Shown piece by piece: positions 5,992 through 20,000 of a stretch of DNA of 20,000 nucleotides; position 1 is the stretch's first letter; each line of letters starts with the position of its first letter. The translations under genes and the position numbers were made by a program. The notes beneath the pieces are model-generated. The model did no database searches, was not told the origin of the DNA, and saw only the letters and a list, made by a program, of their open reading frames with translations. The DNA lies in assembly GCA_013239625.1 (NCBI GenBank), contig MU053722.1, forward strand, positions 54,234 through 74,233, written 5' to 3'. The stretch comes from Lama guanicoe. Lineage: Eukaryota.

Positions 5992-6230
5992 ATATAATAT
6001 AGTGGCTCAAGACAATGTAGTCAGTGCATCTGGATTTACATTTGTTCTCCAACTTTCAACCTCTATAACAATAATAAAGTTACTTCATCTCTATAAGTCC
6101 GCATTTCCTCCAATGTAAAGTGATATAAACTCTTGTCAACTTGATAGAAGATTAAATGAGCTAACATATTTAGTATGTAAACCATAGGAAATATTTGAAA
6201 TATGGTAAAAATAAAATGGCAATAATCGTG
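5992..6230 (+). mobile_element. MIR SINE
   Basis: TATAGTGGCT..., AAGTTACTTCATCTCTATAAG..CATTTCCTC..ATGTAAA and AGATTAAATGAGCTAACATAT match MIR in order. Confidence 0.75.
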
Positions 6231-16105: not shown

Positions 16106-16854
16106 ACCGACTATATACTTAGATCTGGCTCAAACCCTCTCTCGGTCACAGGATTTTCCCTGTGATGCAGTTTGTTCAAATGTATCTTTCTTCCATCTTA
16201 ATGGCAGTCCTTATTATAGATTTTCATTGCAATATACAATTAAAGGTATGTACTTTTCCTTTAAAGTAAAAAAATGAGGGGACAGAAACTTCATGAATTC
16301 ATCTTTGTACTTGTTATTGTCACACATAAACCTAATGAGGGAGAAGGCATTAAACAAAGAAGTATTATGCAAAACAGAATTATATGTGTATTGTAATAAT
16401 AATATGGAAATCAGGCAAAGCACTCTGGAATAACAGAAGGGCCCATTGATTTTGACTGGAGATCTGAGGAAAACTACACTTAATTTTAGCATTTGAAAAA
16501 ACTTTGAGGCAAGAGTACAGATTTGATAGCAGAAATGAGAGAGAGTTCATTCTTTCATTCCCTTTCTTGAAATACATATTATTGTGATAAAATGTCTTTA
16601 TTTTTCAAAATATTTAGTGTGATTTATGTTATCTTTCTCTCATAAATACGGGTTAGTATTTGGGTGAAGAAATCAATAAATGGATACATGTCCCATTTCT
16701 TCCTCCAGTTTCTTTCTCAGAAGTAAATGTCATGGTGGGATAGTGCAGCATACAAGAACACATATTGTATGGTTTTATATTTCCTAATAGAAATACGGCT
16801 ATTATTTGAATAGTGACAATTTCCTCAAAACGATGTTATACAAATACTTGATTT

Positions 16855-18063
16855 AAAATTTTTTATTGAAATACACAATGTACAGGATGGAAAACATATG
16901 CATAAAATGCGTATAGCTTCTTTAATTTTCACAGTGTTAACGCAACTGTGTGAGAATCTCTCACATCAAAATATAGAAAATCACCATGAAAACCAGAAAT
17001 ATTTCCTGTGCGCCTTCCTTGGCATTATGCCCCCAAAGAACTGTTATTCTGAATTCTGTCAGCAGTGATGAGTTTTTCTTGGTTTTGGAATTTCCATTGA
17101 TGAAATCGTATAGTGCTTATTCTTGATTCTGACTTCTTTCACTGATGATTATAATTTGAAATTAATCTGTGTTGTTGCATGTAGCAGTGATCTGTGAGGG
17201 TCATCCATGCTGTTGCACATAGTGGGGATTTACTACTTTAGGTTACTAAACAATGTTACATATGAACATAGGTCACAATTTATTTGTCCATTCTATTGTT
17301 GATGGAATTTGTGGTATTTCCAGTTTGGTGCTATTACAAATAATGCTGGTTTCACAATTTTATGCATGTCTTTTGATGTAAAGTTATGTAGGAGTGAATT
17401 TGGCATATAATAGGATATGCATACATTGAACTTAATATTTTTAAAATGGTTGCACCAGTTTACAAACCTGCCAATAATAAATGTAATTCCAATCACACTA
17501 TATCCTCACCAACACTTTTTTTCTTTTTAGTTGAGGTGGGATATATAGGTAAATAGTTGTGGTTGTGACTAATAATGTTGAATATCTTTTAGTAGGTGTG
17601 TTGCAGTTTTAATATCTTCTGTTGAAAAGCATTTTCTAGTCATTCTCCCGTTTTCTTATTGCACAGTCTGTCCTTTCTCATTAATCTGTGGCAATCTTTA
17701 TATGCTAATGTATATGAATCTTCGGTCTGAGATATATGTTCTAAATATTTTATTCTCTGGTTTGTACTTTCAGTCTCTTAATTGTAACATATTTTACAAA
17801 TTCAAATTCGAATTTAAATAAGATCTATTTAATTAATACTTTCCTTCATTATTAATTTGTTGCTCTTTTATTTTTATCTTAAAAAAATTGTTGTTTGTCC
17901 CAAAGTAAGCAGAAGATATTCTTCTATAATTCTTTTGGAAAAATTACTTTATTTTTTCCACTTAGGACTACAACTCAACTGGATTTTTTTTTTTTTCGTG
18001 TGTGTGGCATAGGATAAGAGTCCAGGCCCATTTTTACTTATCTGAATATTCAGTTGATCCAGC
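16855..18063 (-). mobile_element. Ancient L1ME-like element, 3' UTR and ORF2 end (part left of the LTR insertion)
   Basis: TTTTTTATTGAAATA terminus, then CATCCATGCTGTTGCA, TCCATTCTATTGTTGATGGA..TTTCCAGTTTGG.GCTATTACAAATAATGCTG, GGTTGCACCAGTTTACA and ATCCTCACCAACACTT. Confidence 0.88.
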
Positions 18064-18255
18064 ATAAACTGTGGGAGCCCATGATTGGGTTAACAAATTG
18101 TAACAGACCACAGCCGCTTCTGGGCTGGTGGTCCACTTTAACATATTTATAAGAATGTATATTATTCCCCTCTCCCCATGACTTCCCTAAAGGTAAACTG
18201 TAGGCCCCCAAAGAAATGAGTCTTGGGCTGGAATGATAAGTTATAAAAAGCTGCA

Positions 18256-18341
18256 GACTCGGAGGTGAAAAGGCTGGTTAGCCAATGACGGGTAAGACCC
18301 CCAGAGGGGGGCAACCTAAGACAGGCACAGCTACCTGAGTC
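18256..18341 (+). other. Half-CTE (NXF1/TAP-binding RNA export element-like hairpin)
   Basis: AGCCAATGACGGGTAAGA (18280-18297) and CAACCTAAGACAGGCACAGC (18312-18331) match the recalled MPMV/SRV CTE loop strands. They are held together by nested complementary stems. Confidence 0.8.
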
Positions 18342-18490
18342 CAAGAAAAATGTTAAAGCAGCTACTTCTCAGACGTTTTGCCCTGATATGCTGTAAGGCT
18401 CGTTGATGTCAATACAAATATGACTTGCTAAAACCTAGAGGGCCTTCTGACCTTGAGCTAGACTCTACACTAAATCCCACCCTGTCTTTC

Positions 18491-18570
18491 CCTAAATTCC
18501 TGCATTCCATCTTACAATGCTCAGTGATTTCCTAAATTCCTGCTTTCCATGTCACAATGGTCAATGGTTT
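18491..18570. repeat. 40-bp tandem direct repeat inside the LTR (U3 enhancer-like)
   Basis: CCTAAATTCCTGCATTCCATCTTACAATGCTCAGTGATTT vs CCTAAATTCCTGCTTTCCATGTCACAATGGTCAATGGTTT, 34/40 identical. Confidence 0.9.
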
Positions 18571-18741
18571 CTCCTTTGATTGTAGACAATAAATGTGGGA
18601 GCAATTGAGATGTTCGGGAAGTTGGCTTCTGACTCCCTCTCGCTCTCTTGACTTTTTCCATAGAGTCTTGAGTAATTCATTCCGTTTCGGTGGGACTTCT
18701 GCTGGCCAGAACCCACGGGTGGTGACGAACCCACAATAAAT

Positions 18742-19810
18742 AGTGGCGATTATCGTTGTGAAGAAGTGACTATATATGCAGATTTGTATGTGTACAAGTA
18801 GGTCTGACACTTTGTTCTATCAGTCTGCTCTTTAATTCTTATTTCACCGATGCTTTTAATTATCATAAACTGGAAATAAGTCTCTACAACAGGTAGTGCA
18901 AATCCTTTAACTTTGTTATCCCTCACAAGGGTGTCTTCACTGTTCTTGCCATTTGCATTTCCGTATGTCTTAGATTTATTTTGTCAGTTTTCTCAGGCAA
19001 AAAAAAAAAACTGCGAATTTTATTTTAAATTGCTTTGGATCCATAGATGAATTTTAAAAGAATGAACATTTTTATAATGAATCTTTCTATTTATAAAAAG
19101 GATAAATTTAGGATAAATTTTCAATTTATTTAGATTTTTTAATGCTTCTCAGAAATATATTTCAGTTTTCTAAGAAGTTTTCCACGTCTTAATTGCTAAT
19201 TCCAAACATGGTTTGATATTTTTAGTACTATTACAAATGAATTCTTTTATTAGATCTTCTAATAGCTTGTTGCTGATGTATAGAAATGCAATTTAATTTT
19301 GTATATTGGCATTGTATCCAGAGATTGTGCTAAATTTATTTAATAGTTCTAATAGTTTACATGTATACTCTTGGGATTTTTTTATATAAACAGTAATGCC
19401 TGTGTTAAGACAGTTTTATTTCTCCTCTCTTTGTCATACTTGTATTTTTTTATGTTGCCAAAATAACATAAAATATAAATAATGTTAATAAATAGACTTC
19501 TCTAATTTCCTGCAGTGAGATTCCACTATTCTCTCTTTTAATGTGGTACTTCGTATAAATACTCATTTATTAAATGAAGGATCACCCCTACTTATCTTGG
19601 CTACCCTGATTTTTGGTGTGGCTTATTTTAATTTTGTTTCCTTGAACCATGATTGAGTGCTGAATTTTATCAAATATATTTATGCATTAAATACAAATTT
19701 TCTCATTTGGTCTCCTAAGTAGTGAGGTGCATGATAGGTTTTTAAACATTTAAATACACTTGCATCCTGAAATCAACTGTAGTTGACTTTTATTTGAGGT
19801 ATTAGTTCTT
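18742..19810 (-). mobile_element. Ancient L1ME-like ORF2 (continuation after the LTR)
   Basis: AACTTTGTT..TTGCATTTCC.TAT, TTGTTGCTGATGTATAGAAATGCAATTTAATTTTGTATATTG..TTGTATCCAG and TGCTGAATTTTATCAAAT are antisense L1 ORF2 blocks collinear with the left part. Confidence 0.88.
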
Positions 19811-20000
19811 CAAGTCCTGGCTGCCTTGGTAATAAGTCAGTGAGATTGCTACAAACTGAAGGTTTCTGCTTTCTGACAGCCAAAATTACCGAGGGGAAAA
19901 AAAAAGCCTGCAAAAATATAGGTCACCTCAATGTGTTTTCTTCTCCTTAATTCTTGGCCTGAGTACTGACTACCCACCAGTGCCTTCGAACACAGATTTG
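19811..20000 (-). mobile_element. Possible L1ME/HAL1-type 5' end fragment
   Basis: GAGGGGAAAA..GCCTGCAAA..TAGGTCACCTCAATGTGTTTTCTTCTC..TTCTTGGCC..TGCCTTCGAACA resembles antisense L1ME 5' sequence. Confidence 0.55.

Follow-up and report, generated by a model that had tools for sequence, protein, structure and literature searches.

We analysed a 20,000-nucleotide stretch of Lama guanicoe DNA (assembly GCA_013239625.1, contig MU053722.1, positions 54,234 to 74,233 of the forward strand; hereafter the window, whose first letter is position 1) that carries a solo long terminal repeat (LTR) of an endogenous retrovirus (ERV) family, designated family A. The LTR is 666 bp long (18070–18735, TGTGGG...CCCACA), and its positions 187–272 form an 86-nucleotide hairpin (18256–18341) that resembles the CTE (constitutive transport element) found in type D retroviruses, albeit with a single internal loop. 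All of the window features described here are on the forward strand. A preliminary description, made from the letters of the window only, had placed the hairpin within an LTR and not between env and the LTR, and this is supported by the bounds of the LTR, by the alignment to a viral CTE, and by a covariance model (see below).

The bounds of the LTR were defined from its genome copies and from the target-site duplication, which reads ATAAAC on the left (18064–18069) and ATAAAT on the right (18736–18741), 5/6 positions being equal; the same flanks are present at two other loci, L002 and L003. A target duplication of 6 bp is the number found with class II (betaretrovirus-like) elements, and the TG..CA ends, the 6-bp duplication, the dispersed copies, and the proviral copies with a polypurine tract identify this as a solo LTR of a class II ERV. 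The LTR contains one TATA-like motif, TATAAAA (18242–18248), a candidate promoter motif that ends 8 nt upstream of the base of the hairpin, and one polyadenylation-signal motif, AATAAA (18588–18593), approximately 345 nt downstream of the TATA.

A genome search with the LTR gave 823 first-look candidates, and all 40 of those scored match end to end or nearly so; the 5′ 15-mer of the LTR has 293 exact genome copies, compared to two for a control. Thirty loci were fetched; L002 and L003 represent one insertion in a duplicated segment, and the set comprises 28 independent solo LTRs including that of the window. By reading, the target duplications of these 28 copies are perfect (6/6) in 13 and equal at 5/6 positions in a further 13, with one offset and one truncated, and none of the 28 is flanked by a primer-binding site or a polypurine tract. 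Family A has at least three subfamilies, one of 620–680 bp, one of ∼790 bp with ∼160 extra bases after position 50, and a more distant type in which the apical loop of the hairpin is UGA instead of AGA. We note that window positions 16569–19966, including the LTR and its target duplication, recur on two other contigs, with 98.4% identity over 3.4 kb at L002 and 97.6% over 2.4 kb at L003; this repeat is a segmental duplication or redundant assembly, and L003 has lost 22 bases of the 5′ arm of the hairpin.

The minimum free energy (MFE) RNA fold of 18256–18341 is one nested hairpin of −30.8 kcal/mol. From the base inwards it pairs GACUC/GAGUC, AGGU/ACCU, GGCUG/CAGCU and GCC/GGC, above which a 6-nt/6-nt internal loop sets AAUGAC (18284–18289) against AAGACA (18318–18323); beyond the loop are GGGU/ACCU, an AA bulge, a G-C pair, and an apical stem-loop, CCCCC-AGAG-GGGGG, at 18298–18311 (CCCCC at 18298–18302 and GGGGG at 18307–18311). 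The two sides of the loop lie inside the 12-nt strands CCAATGACGGGT (18282–18293) and ACCTAAGACAGG (18314–18325), and helices P2 to P5 together with the loop form a conserved core (18272–18332) that is common to the LTRs of a second ERV family and to the CTE of an exogenous retrovirus. All of the pairings listed in the preliminary description are present in the sequence at the positions it gave, and the MFE fold is the nested hairpin that it had described. The energy of this fold alone is moderately unusual, in that dinucleotide shuffles fold at −24.4 ± 2.8 kcal/mol (z −2.29) and 4/200 of them fold equally well, and the case depends on the sequence.

The two 12-nt loop strands, at a spacing of 8–38 nt, occur once in the window, compared to 0.00 expected from 200 shuffles. 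Throughout the genome (2.05 Gb) there are 88 sites (45 + 43) with both strands intact and none for a control pattern read backwards; the loop-strand pattern with a longer gap has no match in the genome. Both the aligned copies and the count of 88 sites support the earlier suggestion that the hairpin is a feature of the LTR family as a whole. An Rfam scan of the window, for which it was not established whether Rfam includes a CTE family, gave no family at the gathering score, and at E values up to 10 there are nine weak matches over 17900–18800, none of which is CTE-like.

Relationship to the type D CTE

Scanning a collection of viral contigs with the window 18-mer identified three contigs that carry a match (L031, L032, and L033). 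L031 was rejected as a CTE relative, since it is a GC-rich chance match that is missed by the covariance model. The others are a retroviral record of 8557 nt (L032), a length that fits Mason-Pfizer monkey virus, and one of 8126 nt (L033). Window positions 18280–18297 match L032 at 18/18 nucleotides and 18312–18331 at 19/20, reproducing the values that the preliminary description had given for the Mason-Pfizer monkey virus CTE, and both 12-nt loop strands (CCAAUGACGGGU, ACCUAAGACAGG) are identical to their L032 copies at 12/12 positions, the 5′ strand to both of its copies. The Env frame of L032 (TLV_coat, E 1.7e-163) ends at position 1472 and is followed by CCAATGACGGGT at 1503, ACCTAAGACAGG at 1537, CCAATGACGGGT at 1574 and ACCTAAGACAGG at 1613 (span 1503–1624), and then by an A/G-rich tract and the start of the LTR, an arrangement that is the layout of a type D retrovirus CTE.

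In a MAFFT alignment the 5′ arm of the window hairpin lies on the first L032 unit and the 3′ arm on the second, with everything between them gapped. L032 1478–1645 folds as a long hairpin with two internal loops, and the local pattern of the window hairpin is found around each. This pattern, '(((......((((..(.(((((', is present in five MFE folds: those of the window, of the second ERV family (family B), of L032 (twice), and of two metagenomic contigs, L086 and L087. Because of the alignment of the two arms and the shared local fold, we interpret the window hairpin as corresponding to the viral element at its basal stem and outer loop; the short GC stem-loop of the window hairpin occupies the place of the viral second loop and long inner helix. 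The similarity also reaches past the loops into the flanking stems, with CTGG..AGCC before and GGC.CAGC after.

The window element and the type D CTE thus have in common the loop strands, the GCC/GGC and GGGU/ACCU helices, the AA bulge, and the G-C pair above it, with an outer stem that is partly similar, and both would lie within the 3′ untranslated part of all viral RNAs. They nonetheless differ in several respects. The type D CTE is described as a long stem-loop with two loops and two-fold symmetry (PMC7551171, PMC4330390), 150–175 nt in length (PMC7551171), whereas the window element has one internal loop in 86 nt, and a 5-bp GC stem replaces the second loop and inner helix. It is also situated inside the LTR, while the type D CTE is between env and the polypurine tract, and its parent ERVs have a GP41-family Env transmembrane (TM) subunit, in contrast to the TLV_coat Env of L032, rather than a gamma-type Env. 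Folds, pair counts and model matches all place the two strands opposite each other with helices closing the loop on both sides, and the alignment, folds and model agree that the hairpin is a CTE homologue by sequence and structure with one loop and not two, as had been proposed. That the resemblance is convergent or fortuitous we consider exceedingly improbable; the shortness of the motif is the only point in its favour, and against it stand the 0.00 occurrences expected in shuffles, the genome-wide count of 88 sites versus none for the control, and the extension of the similarity into the flanking stems.

The parent ERV families and conservation of the hairpin

Proviral 3′ ends of family A were recovered at four loci (L077, L078, L081, and L083) using a looser polypurine pattern, and these four are the family A proviral ends considered here. 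At each, the start of the LTR is immediately preceded by a polypurine tract, aaaaaagggggata, together with conserved internal sequence, and frames just upstream have matches to a GP41-family Env TM (best E 2e-11) that runs up to the tract. Genome searches for ten purines abutting the family A LTR and for the LTR end followed by TGGCGCC gave no matches.

Many of the 88 intact sites have a different apical stem, UCCUC...GAGGA, and represent the second LTR family, family B. Family B LTRs are 425–462 bp long and start with TGTAGG (562 first-look candidates, 40 scored), and by BLAST they share only 60–64 nt with family A, corresponding to the hairpin core at positions 203–262 of the family A LTR. 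The family B hairpin folds at −32.4 kcal/mol (z −3.99), with 0/200 shuffles folding as well. Three family B proviruses (L061, L062, and L063) have Kimura two-parameter (K2P) distances between their LTR pairs of 0.087, 0.050, and 0.052, respectively, and all of their reading frames are broken. Their fragments match Gag_p10, Gag_p24, zf-CCHC_5, dUTPase next to RVP, RVT_1, RVT_thumb, RNase_H, Integrase_Zn, rve and GP41, a domain set that is betaretrovirus-like, and the family B Env TM fragments are related to those of family A (17/37 residues identical, E 8e-11). The hairpin core is ∼120–180 nt into the family B LTR. A TATA motif follows ∼190 nt downstream of the core, and the polyadenylation signal 24 nt beyond that motif, in a classical short-R layout; the family B hairpin is therefore in U3. 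At the proviral loci of both families the hairpins found by the covariance model are only in LTRs; no second hairpin between env and the LTR was found by the model in the 1.5 kb upstream of the family A 3′ LTRs or inside the family B proviruses at the loci searched.

A structural alignment combined 39 family A copies with 24 family B copies (63 in all), and 18 inner pairs were counted in it. Standard pairs occupy 96.8% of cells, compared to 33–51% when the 3′ partners are slid by 1–3 columns, and 45 cells change on both sides, compared to 10.0 ± 2.8 in shuffles (0/500 reach the observed value). Since these both-side changes are mostly at two apical pairs, C-G to U-A, between the families, they amount to some two events. 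The basal helix is wholly different, family B having AUCCAG/CUGGAU where most copies of family A have GACUCA/UGAGUC, and is present in the folds of both. The helices adjacent to the loop, GCC/GGC and GGGU/ACCU, never covary and are invariant, which would be expected of helices that take part in recognition. A metagenome scan for the two strands yielded contigs L086 and L087, which have the same loop and closing helices with other apical stems (CUGCU/AGCAG and UUUUCC/GGAGAA) and outer stems that also differ. We note that these one-loop hairpins are at 374–484 on the minus strand of L086 and at 400–448 of L087, and that the open reading frames of these contigs (849 bases each) have no Pfam match below E 0.07.

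Covariance model R1 was built only from the 63 ERV copies. It matches the window hairpin at 124 bits, its only match in the 20-kb window, although the window copy is itself part of the model. Among sequences from outside the ERV set, L033 matches the whole model at 39.6 bits (E 8e-10), the model loop aligning to its outer loop and its second loop standing as 80 nt inserted in the apical loop, L087 and L086 match at 36.5 and 34.0 bits, and the two L032 units match at 21.6 and 18.7 bits. In a model-fitted alignment of 67 matches with L033, L086 and L087 added, which leans to structure by construction, 9/18 pairs change on both sides, compared to 2.7 ± 0.9 in shuffles (0/500) and 4–6 in the slid controls.

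Mean pairwise identity across the 28 independent copies of family A is 0.931 in the hairpin versus 0.89 in the rest of the LTR, and the minor-allele fraction is 3.9% in the hairpin versus 6.6% in the whole LTR; in conservation the 86-nt hairpin ranks 79 of 581 windows of the same size, and the 61-nt core 103 of 606. The two loop strands behave differently, the 3′ strand having 4/336 cells off the column majority (rank 40 of 655 windows) while the 5′ strand has 19/336 changed (rank 371 of 655), mostly at CpG. In samples that were not chosen by their loops, both strands are intact in 11/28 family A copies found by BLAST, 1/7 family A copies found by another pattern, and 3/15 family B copies, and the preliminary description overstated the matter in expecting an NXF1-binding module at every solo LTR. 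The conservation among copies and the pattern of loop-strand loss suggest that the hairpin was kept while the virus replicated and has decayed since.

A further observation concerns the 5′ loop strand as DNA, where 18280–18290 reads as a CCAAT box followed directly by TGACG, about 40 nt after the sole TATA motif. The conserved block could accordingly be a DNA promoter or enhancer module, composed of the CCAAT box and a TGACG half-site, to which the hairpin is incidental, and AGCCAATGACG is indeed in U3 and near a TATA motif. We regard this explanation as improbable, however, as the same block is present outside any LTR in the exogenous virus, the 3′ strand, which is free of these motifs, is the better conserved (4/336 versus 19/336 cells changed), and the stems change compensatorily.

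Position in the transcript and proposed function

We propose that the window hairpin is a putative NXF1-dependent export element of the endogenous betaretrovirus-like family A, located in U3 or at the U3/R border and now a decaying relic, and we put the probability of this reading at roughly 0.78. The CTE is reported to recruit NXF1:NXT1 directly (PMC7551171), and each of its lobes to bind NXF1:NXT1 independently, half of the CTE having been crystallised with the NXF1 RRM-LRR (PMC4330390). In a provirus, U3 and R of the 3′ LTR form part of the 3′ end of all viral RNAs, and the hairpin would therefore have been in the 3′ untranslated region. In functional terms this is where the exogenous CTE is also found, its own position being just upstream of the polypurine tract. 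The internal loop, presumably held open by the invariant GCC/GGC and GGGU/ACCU helices, would be bound directly by host NXF1:NXT1, and we infer that unspliced gag-pro-pol RNA could leave the nucleus in this way without a viral Rev-like protein. The window copy is a solo LTR derived by recombination between LTRs in which both loop strands happen to be intact, and it is a relic with no sign of present function.

Several observations weigh against this interpretation. Within family A the hairpin is kept only modestly better than the rest of the LTR, the compensatory changes in the ERV set come to about two events separating families A and B, and the wider covariation count depends on three outgroup sequences in a model-fitted alignment. 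The energy z-scores of single copies are moderate (window −2.29, L032 −0.85, L086 −0.63). Furthermore, the element has one loop, and a dimeric NXF1:NXT1 is proposed to favour the two-loop symmetric CTE (PMC4330390), so that the monomer may be weak. Finally, the 5′ loop strand reads as CCAAT and TGACG in DNA, making a promoter role possible, and the sole family A TATA motif is only 8 nt upstream of the hairpin.

The last of these points bears on the position of the hairpin in the transcript. With the sole TATA motif so close, transcription may start within the 5′ arm, and either U3 or R is a candidate location for the family A hairpin. If transcription began ∼25–30 nt past the TATAAAA at 18242, at about 18270, the core (18272–18332) would be at the very 5′ end of a long R of ∼330 nt and would be present at both ends of the genomic RNA, and the hairpin might then be an R-region element with a role other than, or besides, export, for example in translation, stability, or packaging. 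We consider this unlikely, albeit far from negligible. Each of the four family A LTRs inspected has a single TATA match, always at a fixed distance of ∼42 nt before the 5′ loop strand, and there is no TATA near the single AATAAA ∼345 nt downstream, whereas in family B only 24 nt separate the TATA from the signal. However, the basal helix (GACUCA/UGAGUC in most copies) would be upstream of such a start and yet is kept, the family B homologue is ∼190 nt upstream of its TATA and clearly in U3, and the element of the exogenous virus is wholly outside the LTR.

Contigs of two RNA libraries cover the LTR, with a summed depth that peaks over the hairpin at 6,000–21,000 compared to 40–2,600 elsewhere. 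This depth does not show expression, since it is a sum over many conserved copies, and the upstream flank at 17800–18045 has zero depth in both RNA contig runs. Two raw-read RNA runs gave 0 reads, and the RNA data leave the start, the end, and expression undecided. Some RNA-library contigs join 18197–18199 to 18474 with 35–37 other letters between them, and these appear to be related LTR copies with a short unrelated stretch in place of the TATA motif and the whole hairpin.

It had also been suggested that such LTRs could serve the host, and the window copy or a subset of copies might have been co-opted as NXF1-binding sites for the export of intron-retaining or LTR-terminated transcripts. Both loop strands are intact in the window and at 88 genome sites, the 3′ strand is well placed in the conservation ranking (40 of 655), and RNA-library contigs cover the LTR. 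But most of the sampled copies have lost a loop strand, mainly through CpG decay as for neutral sequence, and since most copies have decayed the suggestion is weakened. The three open reading frames of 110 amino acids or more in the window have no Pfam match, the upstream flank has zero depth in the RNA contigs, and the depth over the hairpin is that of many copies taken together. We think host co-option very unlikely, and the conservation pattern gives no support to a general host function.

Related export elements, origin, and minor features of the LTRs

The CTE-like motif of the NXF1 gene itself has a single loop. It is carried in a retained intron and uses the same receptor (PMC4330390, PMC4338338), and as such is a sound precedent, as the preliminary description had held. 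It differs from the window element in being within an intron of a host gene and not inside an LTR, and the best Tap-RNA_bind hits are on contigs other than that of the window, with a candidate for the NXF1 gene on contig C7465. One account reports that a search for genes outside the NXF family with a sequence-homologous CTE was negative (PMC4338338). The second precedent that had been offered, the intracisternal A-particle (IAP) element, is not a single-loop CTE; the RNA transport element (RTE) of murine IAP serves the export of retroelement RNA by way of the host's machinery for mRNA export, and the account of it (PMC1363727) makes it structurally unrelated to the window hairpin.

Tap-binding elements have been predicted in group VII bat endogenous betaretroviruses (PMC3621094), where they were sought "within and downstream of env", and these are CTE-type motifs in ERVs of a non-primate mammal. 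The bat case is one of motif prediction, and the passages of that paper that describe it give neither a hairpin nor an LTR position, whereas the window element is a folded hairpin with a position in the LTR. A betaretroviral export element in, or derived from, the U3 of an LTR has likewise been described for human endogenous retrovirus HERV-K(HML-2), which has a Rec response element (RcRE) in U3, and for macaque SERV-K/MER11, which has a MER11-derived CTE (PMC11379458). The RcRE, however, depends on viral Rec, and the MER11 element is ∼1000 bp long and, according to the same source, is homologous to none of the published export elements and lacks NXF1-binding loops. A CTE homologue located within an LTR is nowhere described in the literature covered, to which subscription journals, repeat-database notes, and supplements did not belong.

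Where the type D CTE came from has been left open in two accounts; it may already have been in betaretroviruses or may have been imported with a gamma-type env and adjacent sequence (PMC3621094, PMC11379458). We suggest, tentatively and with more doubt than confidence, that the one-loop U3 hairpin is close to an ancestral betaretroviral NXF1-dependent export element, that its internal tandem duplication gave rise to the two-loop CTE found in simian type D viruses, and that the element was already betaretroviral and not imported with the gamma-type env. Such a duplication fits with the alignment of the window 5′ arm to the first exogenous CTE unit and of the 3′ arm to the second, and with the presence of the element in ERVs with a beta-type Env. 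It also fits with an array in a family B LTR, which shows that the unit is readily duplicated. This LTR (L040 6508–8168, contig C2563), truncated on its 5′ side by LINE sequence, has 16.0 tandem copies of a 104-bp hairpin-bearing unit with 96% matches, most of which have CCAAAGACGGGT in place of CCAATGACGGGT. A direct repeat, present on either side of the hairpin in ordinary copies, delimits the 104-bp unit, and this would favour tandem expansion.

There is thus a clear CTE homologue in the LTRs of two related ERV families with a beta-type Env in a non-primate genome, occurring as a monomer and in one 16-fold array. These offer naturally occurring material with which to ask what number of NXF1-binding loops is required for export, together with a concrete model in which the two-loop CTE originated by duplication, and 88 intact, dispersed candidate NXF1-binding sites.

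Other features of the family A LTR include two tandem copies of a 40-bp unit, an enhancer-like repeat, at 18491–18571, one copy of which is absent from most LTRs of the long subfamily (occupancy 0.2–0.6). The 3′ end (18700–18735) contains an internal near-repeat, GAACCCAC...TGGTGACGAACCCACA, and RAACCCACA followed by a gap and TGGTGAC has 168 genome matches, compared to 25 for a control. The family A LTR end plus TGGTGAC was discarded as a marker of proviruses, its 168 matches being to a repeat in the LTR's own 3′ end. Two further loci were set aside as proviruses: L034, with two hairpins 7.8 kb apart, consists of two independent solo LTRs that have their own target duplications and no long open reading frames, and L039, with two LTR starts 3.3 kb apart, contains fragments only. 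Hairpin-bearing fragments of the family A LTR without LTR ends are also present in pairs at L035 (889–1152 and 5480–5753, 4.6 kb apart) and at L036 (747–1006 and 3095–3355, 2.3 kb apart); they cover about LTR positions 128–397 and are local duplications.

In family B, the primer-binding site TGGTGACCCCGACGTGAT is at L062 1222–1241 and in the same place in L061 and L063. We take it to be complementary to the tRNA-Trp 3′ end; in a betaretrovirus this would be unusual. At L037 3400–3470 a family B LTR is interrupted by a tRNA-derived SINE that has the target duplication aaaaagggagtct on both sides.

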